A stretch of 64,000 nt of DNA from Psammoneis japonica (Eukaryota): positions 703,607-767,606 of the forward strand of contig QPGO01000005.1 of the NCBI GenBank assembly GCA_008632985.1. The letters run 5' to 3'. Position numbers and translations under genes: made by a program. Of the stretch, positions 938 to 62,038 are shown in pieces (the stretch's first letter is position 1; each line of letters opens with the position of its first letter). The notes beneath the pieces are model-generated. The model did no database searches. It was not told the DNA's origin and was given only the letters and a program-made list of their open reading frames with translations.

Positions 938-1236
938 GCGAATAATGGCGTCATAGACGAGTGAATTCAGATTTGCTATTAGACCATGGAGCAATCATTG
1001 TCTTGCTCGTAGTCATGGATTCGATTCGGAGCTAGTAGTGTTACGCACGCTACATGGGTCGAGGGGGACTCATCGCCGCATTGATCTTTCGTGGCGTCTC
1101 TCTCGAGAGAGCTTGTGTAGCCAGCATTTACCACTGTAGGTCCGCTTCATAGATCGCGTGCGCGACCGATCTCTACTCAATTGATGGCTGCTGTAGCTGG
1201 GGCCCTGCCGGCACTCTCTCTAGCTAGCCATCTCTA

Positions 1237-4200
1237 CCCCAGAGCCACATGAAGGTGGGCTTTGGCAGATTTGCCATCTTGTTGTTGTTGAGACAAGCCA
1301 GCTGCGGTGCTGACAAGCTTGACTCTTGTCGTGCCAAACTTTTCTTCCAGCACCAGTGTTGCCACTTGGCTGCAGCAGATGTCATTTTCTTCAACTGCTT
1401 TTCTTGCCATCTTGTTGCAGGCTGCCCACACCATGTTCTTGAAGTTGAGCAGTGGCTGTCTCTGTCTGTTGCCAGTTTCAACAGCTTGTCAACAAACTCA
1501 ACCATCTGGTCAACGTGCAGGGGCACACTCCAGTTGGCCAGCTCAGCATGTGGCCAGGCTTGGTTGCCACCTTTTCTTTCTCAAACAGCTGATCAAATGC
1601 ATGTTGCAAAGCAGTGGCAGCTGGCTGCAGGGACACATGGGGCTTGTGACACTGCAAATTTGTGGGGACAATGCATTGATGCGCTGCACAACATGCTCAA
1701 AGAGCAACATTGTCAGCAGCGCCCCTTTCAAGAAATCTGCCTCAGTGCCCCACCCAAAAATCAACAACAATCATGTGATGTCTTGAGGTGCTGGCAAAGT
1801 TCAGCAAGTTTTGGTCAAGACCTGCAACACATCATCCTGCCTCTAAAAAGGAGTGCACACATCAAGCGCAACATCTTGTGACTGCTCACCACCCTGCTGA
1901 GCTGCTTGGCAAAACTTTTTTGTGTGCCAGATTAAAACCTGGGCTTTCCACCTTTCTCACAGCACCAAGGGACAAGTTTGTGGTCTGATGTCAAATGAGC
2001 CAAAAACAAAATCAACACTCAACCACTTCTTTGGCAGAGGAATGGTGCTGCACCTCCAAGCTGGACTCTGAAACATGGATTGGGCCGCATTTTACATGTG
2101 ATGCTTGGGGTGCTGGTCAGCTCTCACCAAGCCACTTGGCAGTGTGCTTTGCATGCGCTCTTTTCTTTGCGCACTTTTCCATCAGCAGCAGCCACTTTTG
2201 CAGCAATGCAATGCTTTTGTGCTGTTGTGCTCTCTTCCTTTTCAACAAGCACAGGAGTCAAGTGGCTGGCACATGGCACAAAAACACCAACAGCACAAAG
2301 ACCAGCTTTTGCCGGCTCTTCAACAAGTTGATTTTTGAGGGCCAACAAGCCAACAATTTGTTCAGAATTCTGGCAGTCTTCTGCACAACATGGCAGTTTG
2401 GACAGACCACTTGTGCACCCAGTTCTTGCATTTTTTTGTGCCTGCAGAAATTGTGCATGGCACAATCTCTGCAGAATGAATTGCACTGTCTGACTTTGGC
2501 AACAACTTCTCTCCATAAAAAAAAAATTGGCTCACAAAAGGACAAAGTGCACAAAATGAAAAGTGCTGCTGACAACTGTGACAAGCACCATCAGACAAAA
2601 TGGCCTCCACTTGCTCATTTTAAGGAGACAACTCCAGATGTGCTGCAGCAGCGTTGGTGGTTGAAATGAGGCAAGTGGAGATCAAAGAGTCAGACAGAAA
2701 ACATGGGGCTGCATTGTGCAAGAGGTTTTGCTGGATTTTTCCATGGGGTGAGGAAGCAACAGGAGTGGTGGTCCCCAACACCAACAAGGGAAGCATTGGA
2801 GATGGGCAAAGGACAGCATGAACACTTGCTAGATGCCTTGCTTGGGGGCTGGCTTGGATGGAATTGTCCTGGGGTGTCAAGTTGCTTGTCCATCACTGAA
2901 AAGACAGTGCTTGGTGGGTTCAAACACTGCATCATGGGCATGCCACTGCTGCAACTGTGGCTGAAGATGGCAAAGAAGTTTTCACAATGGCAAAGCAGGA
3001 GTCAATGGTGCATGCCTCAATGTTGCAGATTGGCGAGCCACTCTGGTGCAACAGCAGAGATGAGTCAATGCAGTGCCAGACTGCCAATGACAACACAAAC
3101 AATTCAGAGTGCAGCAAATGAGCAGCATTTGCCAGTTTGGAGCAGCTTGGCTTGAATCATTTGTTGCTGTTTGTTCATGCCTCAACAACCTTGAAGCATC
3201 TGGAGCAAATTGATGATGAAAAGGTTGCTGTGCAGATCAAGCCGGTTGCCACAAAAAGCATGCTGGGTGCCACAGTGGGGAGGCGCCTGCCCACACCAAG
3301 GATGTTCCAAGCTGGAAGTCAAGGATCTGAGGTTGCAAAGCAAGTCTTGATGAAAAAGCTGAAAAAAGAAGAGCCAAGCACCTCCAGATGAGGAGAGGGT
3401 GAATGACTTGGGTGAGCACATGCTGAAGGTGATGATTTTGGTGACCGCAATGGTGGAAAAAAGATGCGTGATTTGAAGAGTGATGTAAAGAGAAATGAGC
3501 TCACCTCAAATCATGCAAAGATGTGGTGGCCAAGCTCAGGAAGGATCATGATGGGTGGCCATGCCAGAAATGAGAAAGGAAATGCTTGAAGTCAGAAAAC
3601 AATCTGAGCTTGCCAGTGCAAAGGTGGAGCAGAAATGTGGCTTGTCATGTGTGCAGGACCCTTGTTGGTCAGTTGGATGCCTTGTTCTCTTTAAACAGCA
3701 AACTGACCCAGTGCACCCCAAGAAAGCATGACCAAAACCATGACTGTCAGCTCCAAAATCAAAAAATTGAAGACAACTCAGCTGCAGTCATGCAGAAGGA
3801 AAAGGTTGCAAAGGGGCACAAGCGGGCTGCAAGCTGCAAAACCTGGCCGCAAAAAGTCCTGCACGACAGCTTTTTACAAAGGCAGTGAAATTAGAAAGAT
3901 GAGAGAACTTCAAAGATGGCAAAAGTGTGCAATGCCACAGTTTCTTCATGCTCTGCCCCCTTTTTCCTTTTGTTTGGATTTGACACTTGATGACAGCACC
4001 ATCATGATGACAATGCTGCGAAGGTTTGCCGCTGCACTGTTGTCTGTTGTTGATGTGACATTGTTGTTTTCGTTTGTGCTGCAAGATTTGTGAGATGTCA
4101 TTGTTGTGTGGAAGTGTGCAAAAAGCCTTGGTGCACTTCAGATTGGCGCCACATCTTGTGCACAAAGTTCCTGTGTGTGCACGAGCAAAACCATCATGAC

Positions 4201-4780
4201 AACAGAGCCCGTCAGACTTTTTGGAAAAGCCAGCCATCCAGTTTTTGCTCTGGTCTGTCCATCCTTCAAAATGCCTGCAGAGTCTGGCAGGCTTTCCTCA
4301 CATGTCTGTGCCCACCTGAGTGAGCCCAGCACTTGTCTTGTGCATGTCACTTGCCCATTTGGCACATGGAGGGCGAGCATCAGATGTGTCAGATTTTGCT
4401 GTCAGAGAGACCGACCTCACCCACCATCAATGGCTCTGGTTGGTGAGCACCTTCTCTGCATTGTTTTGCAACTTGGCTGATGCTGCAGCTGCTTTTGAAG
4501 CTCTTTCTCCCACCAGATGTTGTGCTGTGCCTGCAGCTGGTCTCGCGCAACATTTTCTGAATGGGGGCAAACAAGTGGCTCTGCTCTGCATTTTGCATGG
4601 TTTGGAGCCAAAGAAAGAGAGCACCAAGGACAAAAAGAGAAAGCACAGTGGTGGCAAAAATTGCAGTGACAAGAAGGCGCGCTGCTGCCATGTCCTCACC
4701 AGCACTGTGCTTGCTGTGTGTTGCCACGCGGTTGGTGCCGGCTTGGCATGTGACAGTGGCAGAATGCGCTCTTTTTGAGA
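1237..4780. other. Degenerate block depleted of both TpA and CpG, with unidentifiable gene-like remnants
   Basis: By eye there are no TA dinucleotides in 1237-1843 and only about 5 CG. Translations are Cys/His/Gln-rich in all six frames. A signal-anchor-like remnant lies at 4389-4727 (-). Confidence 0.75.
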
Positions 4781-5122
4781 AAGGTGGGCAGTTCCCCCAT
4801 GATCATCGTGCTTCGGTTGTGGGGAGTGTGTTTTTGTTTGGGTGGGTGAAGGGGTTCGAACGGGAATCATTTCTGCATTCACAAACAACAGATGCACCGT
4901 GATCAGCTCTCCCTCGTGCGAGTGGTCGCGCGCGCATGCGGTGGGCAGGGCCCACATCATTGCAAGATCTAGCTTGAGATGACTTGACAAAAGTTGTGTG
5001 AGAACCGAGGAGAGAACCCATCATCGCTGATGCAGCCCAAACGGCAGGTCGTCAAATGGTGTGGGTTAGCGCACATGACGACGTTGCTGACGCAGACGGT
5101 CATCCTTTAAGCAAGTAGCCCC

Positions 5123-5151
5123 ATGTGCGCTATAAAGTTTATAGCGCACAT
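5123..5151. repeat. Perfect hairpin ATGTGCGCTATAAA-G-TTTATAGCGCACAT within subterminal repeats
   Basis: 14-bp arms with a 1-nt loop. The TGTGCGCTA-like motif recurs at about 5066-5076, 5187-5201 and 5209-5224. Confidence 0.85.
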
Positions 5152-5693
5152 AAAGAGCTGCTGACGTTATAGGGTCATTCTGCTTCTATGTGCGCTACAA
5201 ATCTCCCCTGTGTACGCTATAAAGTGACATCCACAATTATGAAGAAAGACAGAAAGGTAATGGGTCAATTTTCAGTTTGGATTACCGACATACATCGATG
5301 AATGTGCATGCTTCGCAGGCACCACGCAACAAACTGCAGCACCACAATGATGCGTGCCGCCGGTGTCTCACTTTACGGCATGATGTCTCAATGACGCTTT
5401 TGCCGATTTTCCTGTTTGTTTTTGATTTCTTAACAAAAATTGTGCAATTCATCCGAAAAGCTTGGCGCTGTGGCTTCTTGACTTTGCTCATGCCATCCTC
5501 ACAAAAGCAAGCCTTTGTTTCCTTGCCCTGCTTCTGCTTTCTGCTGCTGCTCACCTTGGGCTTTGGCATGTGCTGGAGATCATTTCTGGCCACCTCAGAT
5601 GCTGCATGCCTGTGAACTTGTCTGTGCTTTTTGTCTTTTCTTTTTGTTGTTGCTCTGGCTTCTTGCTGTTCCAACACACAGAGCACTGCTTTT

Positions 5694-5694
<1 letters not shown>

Positions 5695-5724
<30 letters not shown>
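5695..5724. repeat. (TGC)10 microsatellite
   Basis: Directly visible. Confidence 0.95.
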
Positions 5725-5727
<3 letters not shown>

Positions 5728-6924
5728 TTTGTTCATGATCATCATGCTGGGGAGCTCCTTGCCAAAGCTGCAAAGAGATGATTTTCCAGATCTGCAACAA
5801 GCATCAAAGCAGCAGTTCTTTGTGAGGCAGCTCTCAACAACAACTGGGCCAAACCCCAAAGTGGTGCTGAGAACACTTTGCAGTTTGCAAGGTGCTGCTT
5901 GGTCATGGACAACATGCAGAGTTTCTCAGCTGGCTTGCTGTGGTGGCAATGAGCTCTTGCTGGGTTGTGCTGTGTAGAGCATCTCAGCTGCTTGTGCTTT
6001 TGGCACCCAAAGCCGTCTCACAAGTTTCTCTTTTGGCATCTTGTTCATCCCTTCCACCTGTTTCTTCAAGATGCAGCATGCAGCAGGGCTCTCTGTGAGA
6101 GCTGGCATGTGGTGCCATCCTGGCTTCTCTTGCAGCCATCAGAGCTGTGGCTGGACACACTGGTTCTGCACAAACTCTCCTTGTCTGCATGCCACACTTT
6201 GTTTCACACCAAATTGTGGGGCAAATCTCAACTGGCACAGCTGTCACACACCCCAAAATGGCATTGAAAACACTTTGTGGGGTGCTGTTTGGCTGCGGAC
6301 AACCTTCGGCCTTCTTGGCTGGGGCCAGCTGGGGGGCAGCAGCCAGCTCTCTTGCTGCTGGGTCACAGCACAACACGCTGCAGAGCATCTCTCAACTGCT
6401 GCTTGCTTTTGGTGCCCAAAACAGTCTCACAATTTTCCCTTTTTGGCATTTTGTTCACCCCTTCCACCCAGTTCTTCAGTGCACAGCACACACCACTCTC
6501 CTCTCTGCACCCCGGCTCTTGCCCCTCTTCCTCTGGCTCTCTGCGCATCTTTTTTGCTTCTTGCTGCTTTGCCTTTTGTTGCAGCCACTGGTGCTGTGGC
6601 CAGACACTCTCTGTTTTGGCACAAGCTCCTTGTCTGCATGTTGCACTTTGCTTCAAATGTTGTTCCTTGTCCTTTTGAGATGAGATGCCTTTGGTGATGG
6701 GTGCTTGTGCAGAGTTGTTTGTTCTCCCCACTTTAACATCCGGGTCACTTTTTCGAGTTGACTCTCGCTTCGCTCGAGTCGAGTCAATCAAAACCTGCTG
6801 CCCACACCAGGTAAAAAAATGCCGCCCAAACCCAACAGTTTCCCATGTGTCTAATGCGTTGGTTGGCACACACATGTCAGAGAGGGCACACTCGGTCATA
6901 GAGCACATGTGCCTGTCTCACTCA

Positions 6925-6936
6925 CTCTTCCCCTCC
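6925..6936 (-). other. Polypurine tract of the Gypsy element
   Basis: Purine run (reverse complement of ctcttcccctcc) immediately before the TG start of the 3' LTR on the minus strand. Confidence 0.85.
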
Positions 6937-7032
6937 ATGGTGCAAGGCACACACGCACCATTGGAACCACTTGACTAAAATTCAAAACCCACCACGCACG
7001 GAGAAGGGAACCCAGACGTTGGGAAGAAACCC

Positions 7033-10000
7033 TCAACTCCGACACGGCACCACACGGCGAACATTGATTTGCTCGACAACGTGCAGTGCTCGCAGTGCCG
7101 AAACAGTCCCGTTGGCGTGGACTTGTGCAATTCGAAACGGACCACAAGCTCGTTCTTCTAACTTCCAAGGATCCACCAACTTGACCAACACATCTTGACC
7201 AACTGGGCAATCGCAGGAATGTCGCTTCACATTCTGTCGTCGTAGATTCTCGTCGATCAACACTTGTCGGTTGGCTTGTGTCGTTGCGAGGTCGGAGACA
7301 ATGGGCAGGTCCAAAATCACATCACGTTGGAACACGAGAGCTCCACTTGAAACACCCGTGGACCTTGAGTGGGAGCATCGCAAAGCACAAGAGGCTGCAG
7401 CAAGGGCATCGTCCACAATCTGTTCGGCCTGTTGAACATTCAGAGGTGGGTTGGCAACAACCACAGTGCGCAAGATGTCAGCTGCCGTCTGGTGCATTCG
7501 TTCACAAATGGAGTTGGCTGCAGGATTTCGAGACGTCATTGGAGCATCAGCAACACCCCGCTTGATTCAGTGACATTTGGAATTCCCAACCAATGAACTC
7601 TCCACCATTGTCATGGATGCATTGATTCGGTCTGGGGCAACGAGCTAACCAAAGGTTGCAAAAACTTGTCAGTCACATGCTGAGAAGTTTTGTTGTCAAT
7701 GCGTGCAAGTTCAGTCAATCCAGTGACAGTGTCAATGCAAGTGAGAGTGCTGAATTCAATCTCTTGATCTTGAATCGGGATCTTCCATGGTCCAATGAGA
7801 TCAACTGCTGCTTCCGTCCACGGAGCCAACGGTGCTTGACGTTGAGGCAACTCTCCATGTCCAGGACCCAGTTGTTTAAATCATTGACATGCATTGCAAA
7901 CAAATTCATTACAACGTCGCCGCAAAGCAGGATGGTGCATGTGAGTCCGGATGCTTTCATGCAATCGCACGACTCCACAATGGCCCAATGTGCGATGATG
8001 CCATGCAACCATGTCAGGCAACAATGCAGCAGGAGTGCAAATCTTCCAGGCTCCAGGCGGATCATTCAATTGCAAATGACAACAAATCAAGGGACGATGG
8101 TTCACGATCTTGACCACAAACTGCTGCGGATTTTGTTGTCTTTGCTGGTTCAGTTGGAGGTCTTCGAACTGGAGCTGTTGGATCCTTAGCATCTCAGCAG
8201 GATCCGGCATCTTGTCCAACGTTGGATGATTCAAAAAGCATTCAAATAATTCAGGCTTGTCAAGCAAAGAGGAAAAGACGGCGTGAGACTCATCAGAAGG
8301 ATCAACAGGAGCACGGCAACACTTGAACCTGCAAGCGCCCAATTCCAAATCTTCTTCGTCCTCGGTCGAATCCAACTTTTCAAAATGAATGATTTTTCCT
8401 TTGCATTCACCACTTGGCCCAAGGCTCTTCCCCTCCGAAGGCGGATCCACATGTGGCAGACGAGAAAAACAATCGGCGAGCACGTCATCCTTGCCTTCGA
8501 CACACTCAAACGCAGGTGCGAAATCTTCGAGGAACAGGCGCCAACGAAGGACGCGCTGTGTGTTCAAAGTGCAAAAGGTGAGATTTTTGTGATCAGCATG
8601 CACAGTGATGTCAGCACCAAGTGGCATCGAACGAAACTCCTTGAAGCACATGACGACAGCCAGCAGTTCTTTTTCCATTGTCAAGTGGTTTTGTTGAGCT
8701 GCCGAAAGCTTTTTAGACCAATGCGCCACTGGCTTGCCATCTTGATTGACAGCGGCGCCCATCTGGTGGTCTGATGCATCGGTGCAAACATGGAATGGTG
8801 GGCCATGGTTGGGGCAGGCCATCAATGCTTCCGCCGCGATCACTGCTTTCATTTCATCAAACGCTTTCTGACATGATTCCGTCCATTGGAACTGACTCTT
8901 GCCTGTCAATTCAGTCAGAGGTGCAAGTGGGTGAGAACAGCGAGGCCACACATTGCGACAATGAGTTGCTGCACTGAGAAACGATCGGAGTTGAGCAGTG
9001 TTCCGTGGAGGTTGCATTCGCAGAATCGCTTCGACCTTTTTCTTCCATGGTTCAATGCCAGTCAGAGCAAGCCAATGCCCTAAGAAATCGGTTTCTTGAA
9101 CACACCACTCGCATTTCAACGGATTAACTTTTAAACCATTCTCTTCGAGACGATGCAGCACCTTGTCAAGACAAGAGAGATGGCAATCAAAGTCAGCATC
9201 AAACGCTCCAATGTCATCAACATAAGTTTCGACATCCAAACCATGTGAGATCTTTTCAATGATGGACTGAGCAATGTCTGGAGCTGGCTTCAATCCCATG
9301 GCCATGCGACAGCACTGAAACTTTCCGCAGGGAGTTGTGATGGTGGCAAGCTCCTTGCTTTCATCGTCCAATTCCAAATTACAGTGGAACACAGTAAGAT
9401 CCAATTTCATGAAGAATTTGTAGCCCGCTCTCCGCTGCAGCACATCTTGAACAACCGGCAGAGGACACACTTTCCGCTTGAGGACCTTGTTGAGCTCTCG
9501 GAAATCTGACACCCATCACACTCGACCGTCCTTCTTCAGAGCAATGAAAGTGCCAGCTGCCCATTCCGCAGGTCCACATGGTCGCAACACACCGAGGTTC
9601 ACCAAGTGCTTTGGTTCCTTTTTGAACGCTTCTTCATTAACTTGAGCAACAGGAAACGGTTTTGAGTGACAAGGAACAGCGTTTTCATTCACTTCAAGGT
9701 GCACCTTTTCATGAGGATGATGGCCCAACGTTCCGTCAAACAAGGTCAAATGCTTCTCCAACACCGCTGGTGGTTTCTTCTTTTGTTCTTCCGTGAGATG
9801 GTCCAAATTCCGAACTGCCTCCGCTGGATCCGTTGCTTCATGCTTGGCATCAAGCACACAGGTGTCGCACCCGTCCTCGCATCCGCAGTCCGACTCGTCT
9901 TCATGATCTTCATCAAATTCATCCATTCGGTCTGAAGCAACATGCCAATTGTAGGACTTGGACCAATGACGAGGCTCCTTCATTGGGATCACGCGGTCTA

Positions 10001-10637
10001 ACCAATGCAGCGTTCTTGCATCGTAGTTCAAATTGAGGCCAATCTCATCCAAAAAGTCTCGACCCAAAATGACATCACACGCACACGGAGCATCGAACAC
10101 GTGAGCCACACAGCCGTCAACCCTCCTGGTCTTGTCGAATTCCGGTGGCACAATGTCGCTCAGGGCTGCCCAACGACCCGATTGGAAAGGACCTGCAATG
10201 GTTTGAAAAGCTCGGACTCCCTGTTCGTCAAGAGATGGCACGGCTCCTCGAGGTAAAACTTGAGACGAGATCATAGTGTGAGAACCACCTGAGTCAAACA
10301 AGACATGCATCACACGATTCAATTCGTGCCGCTGGATCGATTTTGCAACAAGCAGTGTAGATGGGACCAATGCAGTGCACGATGCTTGCGATTTCATTTT
10401 GGGGAGAGGAATGTGATGCTCAAATGCATCTTGATCGAACACGTCCCCCTCTTCATTCATGTAATTTTCTGCAGCATTTTCAAATTTAACAGGTGACAAT
10501 TCGTCAGGATTTTCAAAACAATCAAAAACAAAACATTCATCATTTCTTTCAGGTGGGACACAATCATTTTCATCAACAAATGCTTCTCTCACAGGCAATT
10601 GGGAGCACTCGGCTCCGGAGCATTCAGCTCCTTCTTC
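7033..10637 (-). pseudogene. pol: Gypsy pol (protease, RT, RNase H, integrase), disrupted
   Basis: PR 'VLFDSGGSHTMIS'; RT 'YVDD'; RNase H 'TDAS..EKELLA..DHKNL..LADCFSR'; IN 'H..LGH..CNAC', 'AVDLIGPW', 'NSICERMH', 'GPF'. In-frame TGA stops at about 9516 and 7881, plus a frameshift in IN. Confidence 0.93.
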
Positions 10638-11897
10638 TCAGAACTGCCGAGGAAACTGCCCGTCTGGCTGAAACCTCACCACACCTCCACAACGTGGAGG
10701 GCCTCGTCCGATCACATCGAAATGGCGCACATCACCACGAGGAGCTTCTCGAGCCTGGTTGTCATCATTCACATTGTCTGCTTGAGCAGCACATCCGTCG
10801 GCCTGACCTTGGCCTCCACGGTTGTTGTTTTCATCACAATGATGCTGACCACCACCTTGGTTGCCATTGTTGTTCTGGTGTCCATTGTTGTTGTTGTTGT
10901 GATGGGTGCCACGACCTCCTTGGTTCTGGTTGCCACGACCACCAAAGCGTCCACCGCCTCCACGGCCTTGTCCACGGCCTCCTTGGAAACGACCTCCACC
11001 TCGACCTCCACCGCCACAGCCTCCACCTCGACCGCCACGGTTTTGAGGCCCACGACAGTTGGGGTTGTTTGGATTGTCACAACACTGGCCCCACGCATGC
11101 CTTCCATGGTGCCATGGGACCGGACACGGATCGTTCGCCTTTGGTTGGCCCTTGCTGTCCTTCTTGTCGCGGTTGCCCTTTTTGTCACTAGAGTTCCCTC
11201 TGTTGCCATTGTTGGACTTGCGCTTCTTGTTGTCCTGACCATCGGCGAATGCCTTCTCATTGCTCATGTGGGCTTGGACATCCACCATCGAGTCCGTAAC
11301 AAGATTCTTGCCCGCACGAATGCAAGACTGCTGCCAGGTCAAAGGGAAGGTGTAGAAGATGATGTTTTTCTGCTCCTGCTCTGTGAGTTCAGGAACGGTT
11401 CCAGGCAAACGGTCAGTGTGACGAAACAAAGTTTCCATGCAATCAACATGAGTTTCTGATTCCACTGAACAGGGCTTTTTGCAAGCAGGCAAATGCATCT
11501 TCATCGTGTCGCGAGCTGTTGGTTTCACGCAGCGCAAATGGTGAGCCGAGACAGCCTGATTGAACCGAGCCACCGTCCGTTGATTCTGTTGGATGCCCGA
11601 GGCAACATTCTGCCATTTCGCCTCCGCAGCACCCTGAAGACAATCTTCGAAAGCATCAAATAATTCTGGTCCGGCATCACAATCGAGTTGTCTTGCCACC
11701 TTCCGGAACCCATCCTCCACATGCAATGATGATTCAATTCCATGCTCTCCTGTGAAAATGGGACACATTTTTGAAAGTTTAGCACCATCATCAAAGGTTT
11801 GAGTGAGCTTCACTTCCTGCAATTCTGAATCCACGAATTTGGTCTTATGCTCAATGCACGCTTTCTCCAAGGCTTCTTGACACATGGCGATGAACAA
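10638..11897 (-). CDS. gag: Gypsy gag (degenerate)
   Basis: 419-aa ORF upstream of pol with the knuckle-like 'CPVPWHHGRHAWGQC' followed by an RGG/N-rich tail. Confidence 0.8.
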   Translation of the reverse strand: MFIAMCQEALEKACIEHKTKFVDSELQEVKLTQTFDDGAKLSKMCPIFTGEHGIESSLHVEDGFRKVARQLDCDAGPELFDAFEDCLQGAAEAKWQNVASGIQQNQRTVARFNQAVSAHHLRCVKPTARDTMKMHLPACKKPCSVESETHVDCMETLFRHTDRLPGTVPELTEQEQKNIIFYTFPLTWQQSCIRAGKNLVTDSMVDVQAHMSNEKAFADGQDNKKRKSNNGNRGNSSDKKGNRDKKDSKGQPKANDPCPVPWHHGRHAWGQCCDNPNNPNCRGPQNRGGRGGGCGGGGRGGGRFQGGRGQGRGGGGRFGGRGNQNQGGRGTHHNNNNNGHQNNNGNQGGGQHHCDENNNRGGQGQADGCAAQADNVNDDNQAREAPRGDVRHFDVIGRGPPRCGGVVRFQPDGQFPRQF

Positions 11898-12212
11898 TTT
11901 CAGCGATCAAACACAATCAACAATCCACAAGATGAACGAAACAAGGCGTTCCCAATTGATCCACACAACGAGAACAATTGGTAACCAAACAAGAACGAAT
12001 TCAACAGTAGCAACACGAGCTTCGAGTTCAAACAAACGCTGCTCTGAATCGCCAATTTCACGAGCATGACTGCGCTGCTCTTCTGATTGACTTCGAATGA
12101 AATTTTCTGCACGCGCTCGTAAATGGATTTTCTCTCTCCTCGATGACACTCTTCGCATTGTCATAAAACTGATGATGCAATGAACAAGCTATAACAACGA
12201 CTGTAATTACAG

Positions 12213-17966: not shown

Positions 17967-18653
17967 ATGGATCAAAATCAGGAGAAAAGCAACGAAGCTG
18001 CCGCTGTTCAGGTCGGGCTGACACTCAACACCGCTCGACCCGCAACTGTTTCAGGGGGGGGGCGAAGAAGTATCGTCTGTACACCACGACGACGACACGA
18101 TGATGAAATAATGAATCCACAACTTAGCCACCCAGATGAGTTGTACGGCGAACATGTGGATCAAGAAGATGAAGAGTGGGTGCACAAGCACGTGCGGGGT
18201 GGTGTACAAGAGACGATCTCTGTGGGGAAAAAAGCAGCATTCACCCTCATCATGCCATGACGGCAATAACAAGAGCAAAACTCAGGAAACGACCCATCAA
18301 ATTAAAATGTTGAAACCACGAAATTCCGATGCTGTTTTGAATTGCCCTGTGGACTGTCAACAGCACGAATTGTACGACAAACAGTGTCGAGCCGTGTGTG
18401 TCATGAATATCGGTGTCAATTGAGATAACAATATGTCTTTTTGGAACGAGACGGGCAGCTAGCTTCACCAAAACAAAGTGCACACCAACATAAAGAAGAC
18501 CGACAACATGACTCGTACCTTGTCGATCAAAACCACAAACAAAAAGAAGGACTGTACCGTACTATTCTATCAACAATCTGTCAAACTGAAGTGGCAGCGT
18601 CGAATATGGACGATGAAGACTATCATCTCTTTGGTTGCTTGGCGTCTGCTTGA
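17967..18653 (+). pseudogene. EAPP: E2F-associated phosphoprotein (EAPP)-like, disrupted
   Basis: 'DELY...DEEWV', 'NSDAVLNCP', 'DCQQHELY..QCRAVCVMNI' and 'CQTEVA...YHLFGCLAS' are spread over several frames. There is a TGA at 18421 and a deletion between CP and DCQ. Confidence 0.75.
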
Positions 18654-18864
18654 CGTTTGCTATTCGGCATACTGTAATTAGGCCTAGATGGTTAAACTGT
18701 GTTTTAGCAGCGATATGTACATACCAACGTTTCCTGGTTGAGTTTGTCGTTTGCTTGATTGTATTAATGTGTAAAATTCATTCGATATATCAACAGACGA
18801 TGGGCAAGTCATGAAGCAATGAATCAAAATCAAATGCCGTGCGGTAGGGCCCCTAAGTAGCTAG

Positions 18865-19902
18865 CTAGTCTTCGTTGCCGCCCATCCATCGTGACAATTC
18901 CTTCTCGGGCAAGTCTTGTCCGGTCCTCTCAAAATGACCAAGGACAGAATTGAAAGTATCTACAAAATCTTCTCCACTCTCGATCTCTCTTGTAAATGGA
19001 GGAAAAGTCCGTATTGACACGTTAGCTTTCTTTTTAATGTCCATGCCAATGCTTTCATCAGCGTGCCACAACTTTTCGGTGCCGTGAACGCCAACAAACC
19101 GTATTGGACGCTGCGCTAGTTTGGCAAGGGCATAGGCTCCCGGAAATACCGGTAAGAGTCCGTCTTCGGGAGTAGGATTTAGTTGACCTTCTGGAAAGAG
19201 AAACAAATCAAAACCGTCTTGGAATGACTCTTTTGTGAGTTTCAGCATGTTCTTGAACGATTTCTTGTCGTACTCGTTCGGATTGCCAGAGCCATTGTTT
19301 GCCATTTCGACAGGAATGAATCCTGCATTGTGAAACAAGATTTTACACACTGGATTTTCATCCAAGCCTTTCCAATAAATAACTTTGAGAGGTCTTCTCT
19401 GCTTTCCCCGAATTTGATCATCCGTGGCCAACCACAAAAAGGTATCCAAGGAAGAAATGTGGTTGGCACACCAGACACTAGGTATCGGGGGCTCTGGCTC
19501 ATTTTCGCAGGGTGTGACATTGACTTTGCAAAAGGGCATGATTTTCAGCAAATTCTTGGCACACTGCTCTCCAACTTGGAGTGATCTTTCTTCGCGTTGT
19601 GTCTTGGAGATCAAGCCAACCTTGTGTAGCGTCCAGACAGGCAACAAGAACACTGGCAACGAAATACACATGGAGGCAATATACGATAGCATTGATATTT
19701 TGATAATATTAGATTCGATAGGACTGAGAATGGGAGAGTCGCCTTCTCGATTCTCCAATGGTTGAAGAGTTTTAATGTCCGTGACCATACCGACGGAACG
19801 CTTGGTGCTGCGCCAAGAAGTAAAAGACGGTTTGCTTGCAGGAACAAACGCCTTCACGGAGCATGGATAGAGAAGGGCAAGTACAATAAAAAGCTTCTTC
19901 AT
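18865..19902 (-). CDS. Plastid-targeted 1-acyl-sn-glycerol-3-phosphate acyltransferase (PlsC/LPAAT family)
   Basis: NHxxxxD ('ANHISSLD') and 'FPEG' motifs; signal peptide followed by 'VKA-FVP', an ASAFAP-type bipartite signal. Confidence 0.85.
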   Translation of the reverse strand: MKKLFIVLALLYPCSVKAFVPASKPSFTSWRSTKRSVGMVTDIKTLQPLENREGDSPILSPIESNIIKISMLSYIASMCISLPVFLLPVWTLHKVGLISKTQREERSLQVGEQCAKNLLKIMPFCKVNVTPCENEPEPPIPSVWCANHISSLDTFLWLATDDQIRGKQRRPLKVIYWKGLDENPVCKILFHNAGFIPVEMANNGSGNPNEYDKKSFKNMLKLTKESFQDGFDLFLFPEGQLNPTPEDGLLPVFPGAYALAKLAQRPIRFVGVHGTEKLWHADESIGMDIKKKANVSIRTFPPFTREIESGEDFVDTFNSVLGHFERTGQDLPEKELSRWMGGNED

Positions 19903-20199
19903 TCTGCGGTGGTAGTTGGTACAACTGCGCGCTGAAAATGAGATAGAGTAGTCTCTAGAGGCGACAGGTTCCGATTTTGAGCGAGGGTTCTCATTTTTGC
20001 ATTTCAACGAAAAAGTGATCCAATCACACTTTCAGTGTTCAACGAGCATACGGATCCTACGGGCATGGATACAATCAATCTGGCCAAACCTCCCGTCTTG
20101 ATACAATCGTTTCTAGCTGCTTGTGCTTTCGTCCGACCGTCGAGACATGCATGCATGCCGGTGCTAAAATAAAAAGTCATCACAACAACATCTCAATCT

Positions 20200-22024
20200 A
20201 TGTCGATGTTGTTGGAAACTACAATTGGAGATGTAGTGATTGACTTGGATATCGAGGGTAGTCCAGAGCTCGCTCGGAATGTTTTGAAACTAGCCAAGGC
20301 TCGCCACTGCACCAACACGCTGACTCACAACATTTTGCCTCAACGACATTGTCAACGCGGAGACCCCAAGGGCAATGGCAGTGGCGGCGGCTGTATCTGT
20401 GGACTGATTGACGCTACAACAAACAAAACGAGCATCGAAGAGAGTAAAAAACGATTTTTGAAAACAAAAGGACGCTTCTTGAGCAAGGAGGAACTGCAAC
20501 AGCGAGGGCGGGTCGTGGCAACTGAAATGAAAACGGGGTGCCGGATGCCATTGGATCTCAGCTCATAATTACGTTGGAACAGGGACCTTTGCAAGCTCTG
20601 GATGGGCTCATGGTGGAATCATCGAACAGTGCTGAACAACAGCAACAGCAATTCTTGTCGTTGGGAACGGCAGCGGAGGATGAAGACGGTGTGCCAGACA
20701 AGCTTCAAGCGGCTCATTGCGATGCCGATGGACGACCGTTTGTGGGTGTGCACATTGTGCGTGCTTTGGTGATTTCTGATGCATTTGATGATCCTCCTGG
20801 AATGGAAGACTTGCTCAAACATCGTGGCGTTGCAATGGAAGATGACAGAGTGACGGCGTCTCCTGAACACATTCGTCCTCCAGAAGAAGTCGCAGAGCAC
20901 CGCATTCAAGCAAATGAAGTGGACGAAGCGGAGGAGGAAGACGAAACTCACGAAAAGGCTGGACAACGAGAAATGGAGATTCACAAACGAGAAGACAAAT
21001 CGCGTGCCATCATTTTGGAAATGTTGGGGGACTTGCCATCTGCCGGTGAGTTTGCACTTTTGCAAGCGTTCGACTTGTGTGTGTTTTTGCTTCTTGTTCT
21101 CTTAGCTGCACTGTGTTTTGCTTTACAGACATCAAGGCTCCCGAGAATGTTTTGTTTGTTTGCAAATTGAATCCAATGACGGATGTTGATCCAGACGTCA
21201 AGGCTGAAATCATTCGAGACAATGAAGCTGGCGCGTCTCTCCAGTGTGCTTTTGTCTAGTTTGCCGACAAGCAGAAGTGTGTGGAGGCACACTTTAAAAT
21301 GAAGAGTGCACTTGTCGATGACCAGAGCATCAAGGTGGACTTTTCACAGAGTGCAGCAAAAGTGTGGAACAAGCATGTGCAGCGAATGAGAGCACCGGGA
21401 GGACCACAAAAGTCTCCCAAACGGAATCGACAGCAAGGTGGCAATGGTCAAAGGAGACACAACAGTCAGTCGGGACATCAGCAGCAACGCCCACCACAGC
21501 GTCGTAACGATTGTCGCAACGGAGACAGAGAAGTGCGCAGATCGCCACCGGGAGACGCAAGGGATGGTCGTCATGTGCGACAGATGCAGAGACCGTGGTG
21601 ATCACGGACGCGACAGGCCGGCATCAGGTGGGAATCGACACCACGATGATCATCAAAGAGACGGCTCACCGCATTCACACAGGCAACACAACAATGACGA
21701 TGACCACTGCAATTGACAGCGCAGACTTGACAAAGAGGATCATTCAATGCAAAGAAGCTGTTCCCATTCCTTCGACAGATGCTCACCCGGCCAGTCGCAG
21801 CAGTGAGAGTGATCTTAGTCGCAGCCCCAAACATCGGAGGAAGAAACATCACAAGAAACGCCACAGAGATCGCCATCGACACAGACACCGTGATGATGGA
21901 GGTGACGATCGTCACAGTCGGTGCAGACACCACCATGATTGAGAGGATGAAGCACCGTCACGACAAGAAGCACAAGAGGAAAAGGAAACGCCACAGCAGG
22001 ACTCGCAGTGTCAATGAAAGCTAG
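20200..22024 (+). pseudogene. PPIL4: Cyclophilin-RRM protein PPIL4/CYP59, frameshifted and TpA-depleted
   Basis: 'MSMLLETTIGDVVIDL', '[29 protein letters not shown]' (retained intron about 21046-21128), 'EAHFKMKSALVDDQSIKVDFSQS', RS/K-rich tail. Frameshifts, a stop and an RRM deletion. Confidence 0.88.
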
Positions 22025-22029
22025 AGTGA

Positions 22030-23640
22030 TTAAATCTTAGGTTTGTGTTGGCATCAGCAAGGTCGGAGCTCAGCTCCCCCACCCATTGCGCTCTTGCATC
22101 ACTTGTGACTGTTCTTGCGTGTCGAAAATCAAAGTGAGGGTGTCCTTGCGCAATGGCGATTGAATGGAAACCAGGCACGTCTTGTTCTTCAGACAACATG
22201 TGTGCACACTGAGAACAGTCATTTGCTCCAGCATTCTCTTGTTCACAGCCGGCCTCTTTGTTGTTTCTGTCGCACTGAGTGATGCAGCTGCTTGCCCAAA
22301 GAGCGACACACCCGACATGGCCGAAGCGACATCAATGTGAAGTCGTGCAAACAACCCAGTGCCAAAACAGTCCAGCACATGTCATCACAAGCCTCAGGGA
22401 ACAGCCCCACCGCAACGAATGTCCCAGCGTGGGCCCCAGGCAAGGAAGCATGCAACGACATTGAAAGCACTGCGACCGTCATCGCAGTCCATGGATGTGC
22501 ACACGGAACAACCAACACGCAAGCATGGATTGCTGCACTGTGCTTTCAGTCTTTCTGCTTCTCTTTTGCAAACGTTCAAAGTGGTGTTTCGAATGTTTGG
22601 AACACTCCAATGCCAAAATTTGACAGAGATCGGTCGCGCAGGATGGACGCGTTCCAGGTCCAGGTGGGACCTCGCACCACTGAACTGTGACATCGACAGT
22701 TTTTTGAGTCTCGTCGTATGTCGCGCACGTAGATTTCTACGTGATTTTTTCGACATTTTGTGTCATTTTACGGTGCACTTGTTGAGCGATCCGTCCAACA
22801 ACTTTTGACATTTTTTGTTACAGCGCGATTCTATGATGTCTCTAGAATCGCGTAGGGCAGGCGAAGTTGCAAAAACGTCGAGTGGCAAGAGGCATAATTG
22901 CACCACAAACTTGGGCGTTTATTTGATGTTGAAGATAAATGCATCCATTAATTAAATTCTTGTACTGCGGAGCTCGCACGCAGAATTCTACGGGCCCAAT
23001 GTCACACGGAGTCCCACCTGGGGCTGGAACGCGTCGATGACATTGCCTCAAGAGCACCATCAAAAGATGGAGCTCAAGCTTTTGCGCATCTTCAGAGTGA
23101 ACTGTCACTCAAAAAAAAGCAAAAGGGGGGATGCACTGCGGAGACAACAAGAAAACTTGCGAGTCAACCGCGTGCTGAGCCAACACTCCCTGTGAGTGAA
23201 GACTTGCCGCACCATGTCACTGATGTGACGGAAAACCCCAAACCCCGCATTCCGTCAATGGCATGATCTGCTTGGCGAGCTTTTGCTGCTTTGCAGACGA
23301 ACGCTGCTGTCTGTTTCAACAGCTGTGACCTGACGGGTCAAGCGAACAGGCAACTTCCTGCGGTCAAAGACACAGGAGTGGCATGGACTCCAGGCCGGAG
23401 ACACGCGTTCGATTTGCCCCGACCTCCGGACTCAACTGGCAACACCTGCGCCACCTGGAGACAACACACCATCAAGCAAAATGAGTTGTGGAATGCCAAA
23501 CGAGAGCGAGTGCTCAATCCAGGGGAAGGGCGAGCCATCCTTGGCGATTGCGGCATTCAAGCTTGGCGAACAACAAACACATCGTGCGAGACGACGAGTT
23601 GTGATTGAAAGCGTGAAAGAATTTCCGAGAGATTTTGCAT
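22030..23640. other. Largely TpA-depleted degenerate segment (membrane-protein-like remnant at 22070-22560 on -, then hairpin-containing TE-like DNA)
   Basis: TA is nearly absent in 22045-22710 and 23000-23645. Hairpins at about 22726-22743 and 22824-22852. No family recognised. Confidence 0.45.
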
Positions 23641-23990
23641 GGCCGTTGCTAAATTTCTCAATCACTGTCATTTTTGTGTGTGTTTGTAAATTAATGCCAT
23701 GAATTCGCATGTAGAAGAATCGTAGGAAATCAGTGCTTTCATTAACATTACCAATTCCTACGTACGCGTTACGGCAACCGTCGAAAACGCAAAAAAAAAA
23801 AAACTGCCGTGTGCTCTGATGTTATTCGTTGCTGCGCGTCGCGCGCCGCGCGCTCTCAACGCTCGCGGTCTTTTTGGCATGTTTTATTTGGCGGAATAAG
23901 CTTCCGTCCTCCTTCCTCCTTCTGCTGTTCCCCTCCGTTCTCAATAGGCTCTTTAACTCTGTACTTCGTTTATAAAAGTGAGAATCGACA

Positions 23991-25778
23991 ATGACTGAAC
24001 ATCCTTACGGAACGACGTTGCTCAGCCGAAAGAAACCCGAGAATTTGAAGCTTTGGGGTCCAAATGGCGTCGGTTACATCGATGTGGCTTCAACTGTATG
24101 CACAAGCGACGGTCAGTGTCCGTTTTACGAGTACAAGAAGGACGCGACACACGAAGGAGCTCTGCAAACGCCGATTCACCTGCTGATTGCTTCGTTTCGA
24201 GATCAGCTTTGCCCTCGTACCCTTCACAATGCCTTTAGCCATGCGGAGAATCCCAAGCGTATATTTATTCGGGTCATTGAGCAAACCAAACCCGACAGCG
24301 ATCTGGTCGACGACGCTGGCTGCTTCCAACGGTACTGTGCGGAATTCAACACGAATTGTAAGGAGTATGAGAATCAAGTCAGAACAGTTCATGTACGTCT
24401 ATAATGGTGTCTTGACTTATCTCTTATCTATGCTGAGTGCATGACTTACTCAATATCTCTTTGGTGATACGCCATACCCAGCTTGATGCTTCAAAAGCAA
24501 AAGGTCCAACCGATGCTAGAAGCAAGTTGAGTGCCATGATAAATTGGGATTTTGTACACCGCTTCGAGCCTTCCGAGCTGGACTTTCACCCAGTTCAACT
24601 TGAAGATTTTTGCATGCAAACAGACTCGCATATGGATTTCTCAGATAACTACGACACGGAGTTAATATACATGCACCACAGGACAGAAAACGATTACGCA
24701 GTTCTTTCAACTTATGTTGCTGATATTAGCCAGAACAATCAAGATATACGGGTAACTCCCAACCTGTGCAGTAAGTGCGCCAAGTGTCTCCCTCTTTACC
24801 TTTGTGCATACCATGCAAGCACATTGCCTAACCATACCGCTTTCTTGTTTCTATCGTTTCAGTGGTCGAGTTCACTACCACTATTCGCAACTGGGGAACG
24901 AAAGAGTGTCGGAACTTGGTGAAGCCAAAGCTCACGAATGCCATGTGGGGAGCAGGCTTATCGTTTCATCGATGCCATGCTGAGCTTAACGTTCCAGTAG
25001 ATCCGTATCTAGATAAAGTATTTGATGGAGAAGAGGGTAGTCGTGGGATCCGATTCTTTACTCATGGATACGACGTTTATACACCGGATCGCGTTTTGGT
25101 GAGTTTGGCGAGGCGTTAGCAACGCAATATTACCAAGGTTGCGTACCTTGGACACTCTCTTGCTCATTCCACTTTCGTTTTGTGCTCTGACAGGTTACTC
25201 ATGACTATAAGAAGCACCAGTCGAACCCAGTAGTTCACTCCTGGGGTGGAAACAGACTCCGCGGAGGACAGAAAGGCGAAATCCGTGATAGTTGGAAGTT
25301 TACGAAAGCAATCGAAATGGAAAGACCCAAACTCAACACGCTTGGTGTGAAACGAGTCAACATGCTGTTAGACATTGGTCCGCAGGACTACAGTGCCGAG
25401 TCGCTCAAAGAAGAGCTCGATAATATTAGGTTTGGGCGATTCGGGCTTGGCAAGAAGCGATCCCTCGAGCAAGTTGCCAAGTTCACTGGCATTGATCTCC
25501 GTGGTAGAAAAATGGTTGAGAACAAATGCGGAAATCTTGAGTGGGTTCCTTTTGAAAAGAGTGACAATTATGGCGTTGAAGAAATCCTCTCTAGAGGGCT
25601 TACTGGTGGCAGTGTCGCACCAGAAGACGTTCCAGATGTGCGTGGAGTGGCGCCATCAACAAAGGGGCAAATCCAGCAGTGGAATTTGGTGGTCGGCATT
25701 ATTTTGCTGGGCCTAGTAGGGCTGAAGCTTTTCAGCCGCCGCCTCGACGCGAGAAAGGGGCAGAGGCACAAGAACTAA
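23991..25778 (+). CDS. GT60/Gnt1-like (Skp1-hydroxyproline) N-acetylglucosaminyltransferase family protein; 3 introns
   Basis: 'IASFRD', 'AKGPTDAR', 'MQTDSHMDF', 'WGAGLSF', 'VPVDPYL..VFDGEE'. GT-AG introns at about 24393-24481, 24770-24862 and 25100-25193. C-terminal TM helix; N-terminus uncertain. Confidence 0.85.
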
Positions 25779-60739: not shown

Positions 60740-61028
60740 AAGTGGGGGTAAGAACGTCAAAGGCGTCTGACATGTTTGACACAATGAGGTCTTTCTAGAC
60801 ACTTCAAAGTGGTCAATTAATGGGATGACCAAAAGGCGCCAAAAAATTGAGTTGTGCATGGCATGCTGTGCACATGCGCGATTTTGTCGACAATTCGCAA
60901 AAATTTCTGTGCATGGCATGCCATGCACAGCGCGAGCAGGGCTAGCTAGAGTCTGCCGTTTTCATTGCCATTGTTGCGATTCGTTGCGATTGGACTTGCA
61001 TGGCACACGCTGTCGGCATCATTTGTCC

Positions 61029-62038
61029 ATGATGCCATCTCTCATCAATGAAAAAGATGCTCCAACTGCACAGGCCCAGGACGGGTTGGAACCACCAGCA
61101 ACCACTTCAGCAGGCACAATCTTCTGCTCGCATCACAACAACCCACGCAAGAAGGACAAGTCCAGCGACGAGCCGAGCAACGAGGCAAAAGCGAGTGAGG
61201 TGGACCACGTCAATCGACTTGCTGCTGAGCTTGAGGCCTCCTTTTTGGAAGATTCAAATGAGGATGAGGCAGAAGAGCGCGAAGACGAATCCATGATGCT
61301 CCAAGCATGCGCAGAAATGCAAGACAAAGCAGACTGAACCGAAGATGGCCACAAGACGGCGGTCGCAGCATTTGACGTTTTTGCCAAAAAAACAGGATGT
61401 CCACCAGTCCATCAGTTGGAACGAAAGCATCTGCGTGGAGAGACTCTCACTGTGCCGAGCTGCAGCAAATTGATGAGGCAGTTCTGTGCTTTCTCAATGG
61501 AGTGCAAGATTGAACATGAAGGTGCTCGCAAGGGGACTCATTGGAAGCCCAAGTCGCAGGCACAATGTGATTCTGGTGTGCACATGGTGCTCAAGAAGAA
61601 GTTGGGGCATGGAGCACTTTACAAAAAATCCGAGCATGACGAACTCAACAAATCTCTAAAAGCAAGGGCCCGCGTGCGCTGTTTGCAAGTGAGGAGAAGA
61701 AGCACCTCAATGGCAGCAATCATCCTCAAGCAAAGGATCATGACAACTGCATGGCTTGGTGGGACAGGGCTTGCAAGATGTTGAAATCCGTGTCTCTCAA
61801 GCACATTTTCAATTTGGTTGAGCAGCACAACAAAGCCGCGCCCTTGCACAACAAGCTGGTTGATGAAAAGAAGGCAGCATCAACTCGCAGCTTCAAAGCT
61901 AGCACAAGTGAGGAGAGGAAGGTCATTGATGGAAAATCCAAATTGGAAAACAAAGTGGGAGCTGTTGTTTCGGCATTGGAAAAACTGCAAACGATGATGA
62001 ACAAGATTGAGAAAGAGGGCAAGAGGGCGGCGGCTTAA
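61029..62038 (+). pseudogene. Degenerate ORF, possibly the N-terminal (core-binding) part of a Crypton-type tyrosine recombinase
   Basis: Reading through TGA at 61335 and reverting H/C to Y gives 'RTEDGYKTAVAAFDVF...LMRQFCAF...GTYWKPKSQAQY.SGV', a pattern reminiscent of YR core-binding domains. No catalytic motifs seen. Confidence 0.3.

Follow-up and report, generated by a model that had tools for sequence, protein, structure and literature searches.

Why should a copy of a host gene, lying among active genes of a diatom, have lost most of the TpA dinucleotides that its source still has? This question is raised by a stretch of 64,000 nucleotides from Psammoneis japonica (termed here the window), within which a PPIL4/CYP59-like sequence carries other residues where the family has tyrosines. 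An earlier note, based upon the letters of the window alone, attributed this to a TpA mutator that either reaches duplicated or silenced cellular genes, as RIP does, or spreads from adjacent transposon-like DNA, and suggested that either would shape paralog or allele loss. Here the copy is compared with its intact source, with other copies in the same genome and with related metagenome contigs.

Structure of the mutated copy

The copy is part of a single inserted unit (Table 1) that lies between the starts of two head-to-head host genes. Inspection of its ends within the window revealed neither a terminal inverted repeat (TIR) nor a clear target-site duplication; the upstream flank (18600-20099) is single-copy except for one 70-nt match. 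Pfam recognises PF00160 in the window copy. In the intact gene, a cyclophilin-RRM gene which we take to be the PPIL4/CYP59 of the family and whose translation has an RS-rich tail after the cyclophilin and RRM domains, in that order, it recognises PF00076 as well as PF00160.

The window copy is interrupted by a 2-nt insertion near 20530, a 30-nt deletion near 21185, a stop at 21257 and further indels, and all 15 of its 15 tyrosines are altered (10 to His, 4 to Cys and 1 to Arg). The motifs read there previously, KARHCTNTL, AHCDADGRP and EAHFKM, are present in its frames; the intact gene has KARYYTNTL, AAYCDADGRP and EAYFKM--that is, a tyrosine in all three--and the related contigs L063, L064 and L066 retain the motif tyrosines as well. 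The TA observed/expected ratio (o/e) is 0.42-0.67 in the flanking genes and 0.07 in the interior of the copy.

Table 1. Features of the inserted unit and its neighbours (positions within the window).
Feature	Position	Strand	Remark
PPIL4 copy, ALG12 tail and repeat, as one inserted unit	20100..23806	+	Collinear with G000:C39 over 20100-22644 and 23036-23795
PPIL4/CYP59-like pseudogene copy (cyclophilin, RRM, RS tail)	20200..22024	+	88% identical to intact gene G000:C1:902853-904723(-)
5' edge, TpA partly spared	20200..20460	+	6/13 kept vs 8/62 in 20461-22346, p = 0.012
Retained 83-nt GT..AG intron	21046..21128	+	At the intact locus, X2 contigs skip this intron
Last 277 nt of ALG12/Alg9-like mannosyltransferase gene, co-copied with PPIL4	22070..22346	-	12/12 ancestral TA gone in 22025-22346
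Non-coding multi-copy repeat with mixed gene fragments, interrupted by a MITE	22347..23806	.	85 matching pieces
390-nt MITE, ~25-nt TIRs, 4-nt target duplication	22646..23035	.	14 TA kept, 14 changed to CA/TG
Left host neighbour, acyltransferase (PF01553)	18865..19902	-	TA normal
Right host neighbour, GlcNAc glycosyltransferase (PF11397)	23991..25778	+	TA normal

Elsewhere in the window, further TA-erased blocks occupy 1235-11900 and 60947-61900; CpG has almost vanished from 1500-4500 and 5500-6500 and is mostly retained in 7000-11900. At a distance of 2 kb from the insert is an RNA-dependent RNA polymerase gene with normal TA (PF05183; 26054-30416, minus strand). This closeness may be due to chance; the gene is nevertheless a candidate for tests of RNA-guided silencing.

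Source and origin of the copy

A search of the genome with the window copy found at least 26 matching pieces, among them an intact PPIL4 gene of 590 aa on contig C1, 180 kb from the window copy, such as the earlier note had proposed to look for. Its neighbour, in tail-to-tail orientation, is an intact gene for an ALG12-like mannosyltransferase. The same tail-to-tail pair occurs in the related metagenome contig L063 (62% identity) and is absent from the other four of the five related contigs (43-53% identity); the two genes that flank the insert occur in none of the five. Contigs of run X2 skip both the ALG12 and the PPIL4 intron and, in the pieces listed, do not differ from the intact locus; although catalogued as 'DNA?', this run is, judging from the skipped introns, probably RNA. 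Because the PPIL4-ALG12 order is conserved in a related contig, and the locus is intact and spliced, the ancestral locus is the C1 gene beside ALG12 and not the window.

The homology between the window copy and this locus continues past the PPIL4 stop through the end of ALG12, and breaks off at 22346 into the repeat. Since part of the neighbouring gene was co-copied, the window sequence is a DNA-level copy of another locus, i.e., captured cargo rather than a lost allele. The earlier view that it is no retrocopy, which was based on the intron, holds: a processed retrocopy is rejected both by the retained intron and by the co-copied ALG12 tail, which is on the opposite strand. The suggested loss of a paralog or allele, on the other hand, is not borne out, the ancestral locus being intact and spliced; the locus does not show the loss of a working gene.

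The window copy and a copy on contig C39 share both junctions, and a tree leaves open whether the two are sisters (an alternative has 64% support). When a single outgroup is used, the window copy shows a synonymous excess that would bear on its past function (21 N : 19 S, p 0.008); this excess weakens with stricter outgroups (13:10, p 0.10; without CpG 11:6, p 0.41).

Mutation spectrum

There are 6 TA between 20571 and 22021, where the TA content of the gene-rich 24-60 kb part of the window would predict 58 (Poisson p 3e-18); the poorest 1450-nt stretch of that part has 42. The near-absence of TA reported for about 20570 to 22020 is thus real; its bounds are wider than was supposed, however, in that 7 of 13 TA are already changed in 20200-20460 and the loss extends to about 23640. 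Of the 69 aligned TA in the intact gene, 50 are CA (34) or TG (16) in the window copy, 14 are unchanged and none is CG.

To polarise these changes, ancestral TA were defined as those common over 20200-22346 to the intact gene and to the C39 copy, which serves as a second witness that is broken and yet keeps its TA (n = 63). In the window copy these sites are now 31 CA, 21 TG, 8 TA, 1 AA and 2 gapped, again with no CG. Per site, A>G changes on the window branch number 44/107 at TpA versus 18/738 at other A (p 1e-29), the latter being comparable to 13/744 at other A on the C39 branch; the TpA rate estimated in this way is at least 17-fold above background, and differences from the intact copy are strongly enriched at TpA as the earlier note had predicted. 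With the C208 and C6 copies as extra outgroups, 20 of 24 such sites have become CA or TG. Losses of TA (52) far exceed gains (3). Because there are no CG products, the target is the intact TpA step: once one side has changed, the other is safe.

The two products show no strand bias (31 CA : 21 TG, p 0.21; with the repeat included 49:42, p 0.53), and an A>G change on one strand is, from sequence alone, indistinguishable from T>C on the other. T>C changes affect 17 of 31 synonymous and 16 of 30 non-synonymous sites; this equality, together with the loss of every tyrosine, indicates mutation without selection. Running against that symmetry are the A>G changes, at 0 of 9 synonymous and 13 of 52 non-synonymous sites, a comparison of small numbers in which context is uncontrolled. 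TAC and TAT have changed more than TAA and TAG (34/64 vs 10/43), and sites of the form YTAR survive more often (4/8 vs 10/67, p 0.036). CpG transitions are likewise raised on the window branch, far less than changes at TpA (23/223 vs 19/596): 29 of 129 CpG have been lost (22%) and 93 remain, as against a loss of about 85% for TpA.

Erasure is graded along the insert. It is complete in the repeat (22346-23640 outside the MITE, 0/33 TA kept), strong in the gene body (20461-22346, 8/62 kept) and weaker at both ends, with 6/13 kept at the 5' edge and 8/16 kept in 23641-23810. Both of these ends presumably adjoin host promoters. The transposon-like DNA noted earlier at 22.7-23.8 kb corresponds to this repeat, which is indeed erased to about 23640, except that 22646-23035 is a TA-richer MITE.

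Other copies of the same gene

Fifteen copy pieces at 14 places were scored for the TA that they keep; two more, at C47:484 kb and C314:44 kb, were left out. Six are erased, namely those in the window (14/69 TA kept) and on C47 (1/55), C158 (0/28), C76 (2/37), C131 (0/14) and C25 (piece C25b, 0/4). Nine are spared: C39 (53/67), C314 (22/39), C208 (20/35), C6 (23/38), C25a (13/21), C89 (27/39), C180 (7/11), C17 (5/9) and C83 (3/7). C314 and C208 are near-duplicates, as are C180 and C17, and hence there are fewer than nine independent cases. Stops or frameshifts occur in seven of the nine spared copies, that is, wherever the protein alignment reached; because these copies are broken, their sparing is not due to selection.

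The other five erased pieces have TA-poor flanks and have lost 62-76% of their CpG, compared with 22% for the window copy, which is also the least diverged erased copy (2.1% transversions). Since this little-diverged copy has kept most of its CpG, the loss of TpA is in advance of the decay of CpG. The intact source has a TA o/e of 0.58, within the range of neighbouring genes (0.42-0.67), despite an erased block directly upstream (flank o/e 0.13). The C39 copy, which has the same combination of gene and repeat as the window, is spared.

Expression was viewed through contigs of one sample (three runs), which is probably that of the assembly itself. Three loose ends in X2 match copies exactly (C314/C208, C314/C208/C25a and C180/C17), and the X2 sequence that matches C180/C17 is joined across an intron that C180 and C17 hold in DNA. 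Several spared copies are therefore likely to be transcribed. Among the 40 of 67 entries listed there are 12 gene places with X2 depth, and at these the depth falls entirely on letters other than those of the window, a pattern that, coming from contigs, cannot prove silence.

As a separate observation, the DNA upstream of four spared copies (L013/L014, L015, L016 and L017, i.e., those on C39, C314, C6 and C208) is itself TA-erased (o/e 0.06-0.22), and this erasure ends at about the start of PPIL4.

The putative carrier repeat

The repeat that adjoins the copy occurs in dozens of copies; 85 matching pieces were obtained from the 40 scored of 1613 candidates. The C39 locus has the whole unit (20100-23795) in common with the window, while on C6, C208 and C83 other pieces of PPIL4 adjoin the same repeat, together with other captured fragments. 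The repeat thus looks like a gene-capturing element.

Its affiliation was sought among known carriers. Pack-MULEs have long TIRs and 8-11-nt target duplications; this type of carrier was rejected, there being no TIR in the window or in nine copy neighbourhoods. Helitrons begin with 5' TC and end in a 3' hairpin followed by CTRR, ends that are common to autonomous Helitrons. The right end of the carrier has only a weak, variable hairpin; the genome has 49 Helitron-like matches, and the carrier matched none of 18 stretches around Helitron-like genes. A 128-aa open frame within the carrier has no Pfam match, and no long source gene was found for it.

Several further features of these repeats deserve mention. 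The AT-rich right end of the carrier (window 23641-23810; also L037, L039, L040 and L042) often coincides with the border where erased DNA gives way to DNA of normal TA content, as a boundary or a promoter might. Unmutated carrier copies (on C39 and C6) contain a 26-nt perfect palindrome, the counterpart of which in the window (22586-22607) is damaged by TA>TG changes. A PPIL4 fragment borne by the repeat is apparently spliced in X2 (L050:5080-5300, L052:4940-5160), at a depth of 348 versus 12-19 for the intact gene, contig depth being a poor measure; a high-depth X2 piece was traced to two more copies of the carrier on C14. Fifteen stretches around matches to Helitron-like Rep/helicase genes (L121-L135) are all TA-poor and many have open frames of 800-1800 aa; the loss of TA removes TAA and TAG stops and may in this way keep frames open. 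Finally, near-identical duplicated segments (L098/L099 on C41 and C317, and L107/L108, both on C14) are either recent duplications or uncollapsed haplotypes.

The nested MITE as a clock

The MITE within the repeat belongs to a family with 297 exact end matches in the genome and 4-nt target duplications. Among the first 30 matches (L068-L097), 25 copies are complete. Every one of the 25 has at least one flank with TA o/e <0.25 and 19 have two, versus 22 of 106 blocks of the window. Copies span from 7 to 31 TA, and nine of the 25, with 29-31 TA, sit in flanks of o/e 0.29 or less. The presence of such nearly TA-complete copies in erased flanks implies that the family lands in DNA that has already been erased.

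In the window, the target duplication reads GATG on both sides of the MITE and the empty site on C39 reads GATA, so that erasure here likely preceded the insertion. The window MITE has itself lost 14 of 28 TA; compared with nine close copies it differs at 15 places, of which 11 are TA losses. Given both the TG in the target duplication and the MITE's own losses, the process is likely to have acted before as well as after the insertion. (One X1 contig joins across the MITE site; it may derive from another copy of the repeat.) The range of TA within this family provides a ready clock for the mutator.

Mechanism and alternative explanations

The reading favoured here, with a probability of roughly 0.7, is that the locus contains a dead copy of PPIL4 plus the ALG12 tail, likely moved by the repeat, in which a mutator, likely directed at silent chromatin domains and not at duplicates, has rewritten TpA to CA or TG on both strands. 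On this reading, the repeat would have captured a PPIL4-ALG12 segment and inserted it into the window; the insert would have turned into a small silent domain, other copies having presumably stayed transcribed and so been spared; and an activity at the level of DNA would have turned the A of TpA into G, on one strand or the other and probably in repeated rounds, while fading close to active promoters. As a trigger, homology fails and mere adjacency fails, and local silence fits.

A search for deaminases found nine PF00383 matches in the genome, which by their motifs we take to be of housekeeping types (dCMP deaminase, TadA, ADAT2 and RibD), with no special candidate among them; TadA- and ADAT2-like genes are expected in any case, for tRNA editing. 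The chemistry that comes first to mind, at slightly less than even odds, is that a TadA/ADAT-like enzyme deaminates adenine in DNA to inosine, which is then read as G; it is placed first because it was proposed in a preprint on Bigelowiella natans (10.64898/2026.01.13.699255) and because, as far as the available text of PMC9630288 goes, TadA-derived editors prefer TA. A broader proposition, somewhat less probable again and put forward tentatively, is that diatoms share with Rhizaria a natural adenine base editor that serves as a genome defence: guided by silent chromatin instead of homology, and blocked by transcription, it would erase TpA in rounds from any insert that has newly fallen silent, down to a size of 3.7 kb, far in advance of CpG decay, and would settle, one copy at a time, what becomes of captured host genes.

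The same targeting of domains could instead be coupled to another chemistry, such as a modified T or A that mispairs at TpA, or error-prone repair of the polymerase eta type following methyl-CpG processing; this is the most serious competitor, although an unlikely one. In its favour, TpA loss accompanies CpG loss in most erased copies, and CpG transitions are raised on the window branch. With polymerase eta, however, one would expect transversions and a rise of A>G at ApA as well, whereas ApA changes are at background (11/247 vs 9/265 and 10/282), and near-complete loss of TpA while most CpG remain speaks against any dependence upon CpG turnover. Diatom transposons bear DNMT5 CG methylation (PMC9998398, available text), which also counts in favour of this chemistry. 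Passive spread, in which an adjacent repeat or MITE suffices to mutate any neighbour, agrees with the gradient from the fully erased repeat toward the 5' end of the gene and with the erased flanks of all complete MITE copies; to this extent the earlier suggestion stands. But the gene is the repeat's own cargo, the same repeat and gene are spared on C39, the intact gene is spared beside an erased block, and TA-intact MITEs sit in erased flanks, the TG in both target duplications indicating that the window MITE likely arrived after erasure; spread of this kind is accordingly improbable.

Still less probable is a homology trigger like that of RIP, under which the copy was hit for being a duplicate. 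The mutated sequence is one, and RIP acts on duplicates above ~65% identity and 100 bp (PMC7296669, in the portion available). What largely refutes it is that the 88%-identical source keeps a normal TA content, that the C39 sister, which is broken and under no selection, has retained most of its TA, that most scored pieces are spared, and that in B. natans the target region is, according to the available preprint text, single-copy. A host-derived, intron-keeping DNA copy was indeed hit, but the comparison 'as RIP does' is not supported, since duplication alone is insufficient. Editing of an RNA intermediate by an ADAR-like enzyme, or reverse-transcriptase error during retro-copying, might be entertained in that ADAR favours U before A (10.64898/2026.01.13.699255, available text) and that an antisense retro-copy could retain an intron; it is rendered highly improbable by the equal change of both strands and by the same spectrum in the MITE, a DNA transposon that was inserted separately. 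Lastly, a long-read base-calling artefact, GC-biased conversion and selection against TA can be regarded as refuted. The assembly does contain some indel errors relative to X1, but the short-read contigs of that run bear the letters of the window copy (0-1 differences in each of five pieces of 166-338 nt, and 4 in a sixth, 22309-22676), which excludes the artefact; A>G changes outside TpA are not raised; and selection against TA is at odds with T>C changes that are alike at synonymous and non-synonymous sites and with the loss of every tyrosine.

Comparison with known systems

The decay of methyl-CpG in methylated transposons starts from CG, whereas here the starting point is TA, and the losses of the two dinucleotides are unequal. 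The locus resembles the DNMT5-methylated transposons of diatoms (PMC9998398) in its probable restriction to silent domains and in its TG and CA products, and CpG decay occurs here too, at a lower rate; the available text of that paper contains neither 'TpA' nor 'deamination'. Like RIP of Neurospora (PMC7296669, available portion), the process destroys mobile and duplicated DNA through transitions in a specific sequence context; RIP, however, is a C>T process that makes TpA and is triggered by duplication, while here TpA is removed and the source and most duplicates are spared. As in the gene-capturing Pack-MULEs, Helitrons and CACTA elements (PMC5861414, 10.1101/777037 and PMC1947982, each as far as its available text goes), fragments of several genes have been multiplied within a repeat, with introns kept and with some copies likely transcribed; in contrast to those elements, neither TIRs nor a target duplication nor Helitron ends were recognised in the present carrier.

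As far as the literature was searched, the one published case of a TpA-directed A:T>G:C mutator concerns viral inserts of B. natans, and no report of one in diatoms was found; the supplements of the B. natans preprint, which lay outside the search, may list cases of host genes. In that alga, according to the available text (Mettrop et al., bioRxiv 10.64898/2026.01.13.699255), DNA of NCLDV and virophage origin that has become integrated undergoes TpA hypermutation, which was measured in mutation-accumulation lines over viral inserts of 25-186 kb, proceeds at a rate raised ~1000-fold, is active in only some lines, acts on a large target that is silent and single-copy, and is ascribed to a proposed ADAT-like deaminase. 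The same text lists some TpA-poor coding sequences with host-type Pfam domains, and contains no comparison of source and copy.

The window locus works like this process and is not RIP. Both convert TpA to TpG or CpA on both strands, are confined to regions and run against the usual AT bias. B. natans belongs to the Rhizaria and its target is viral, whereas here a diatom carries a host-derived 3.7-kb insert among active genes that has been mutated nearly to saturation; there are also sister copies as controls, a preference for TAY and CpG decay alongside, the process being known here from sequence comparison. TA-poor 'paralogs' in such genomes will mislead both annotation and dating. Because the locus comes with built-in controls--the intact source, an unmutated sister joined to this repeat as well, 13 other copy pieces and the nested MITE clock--both the targeting signal and the enzyme can be tested on one gene family. 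Hence, relative to the viral inserts of B. natans, this locus extends the TpA mutator to host-derived coding DNA in a diatom.
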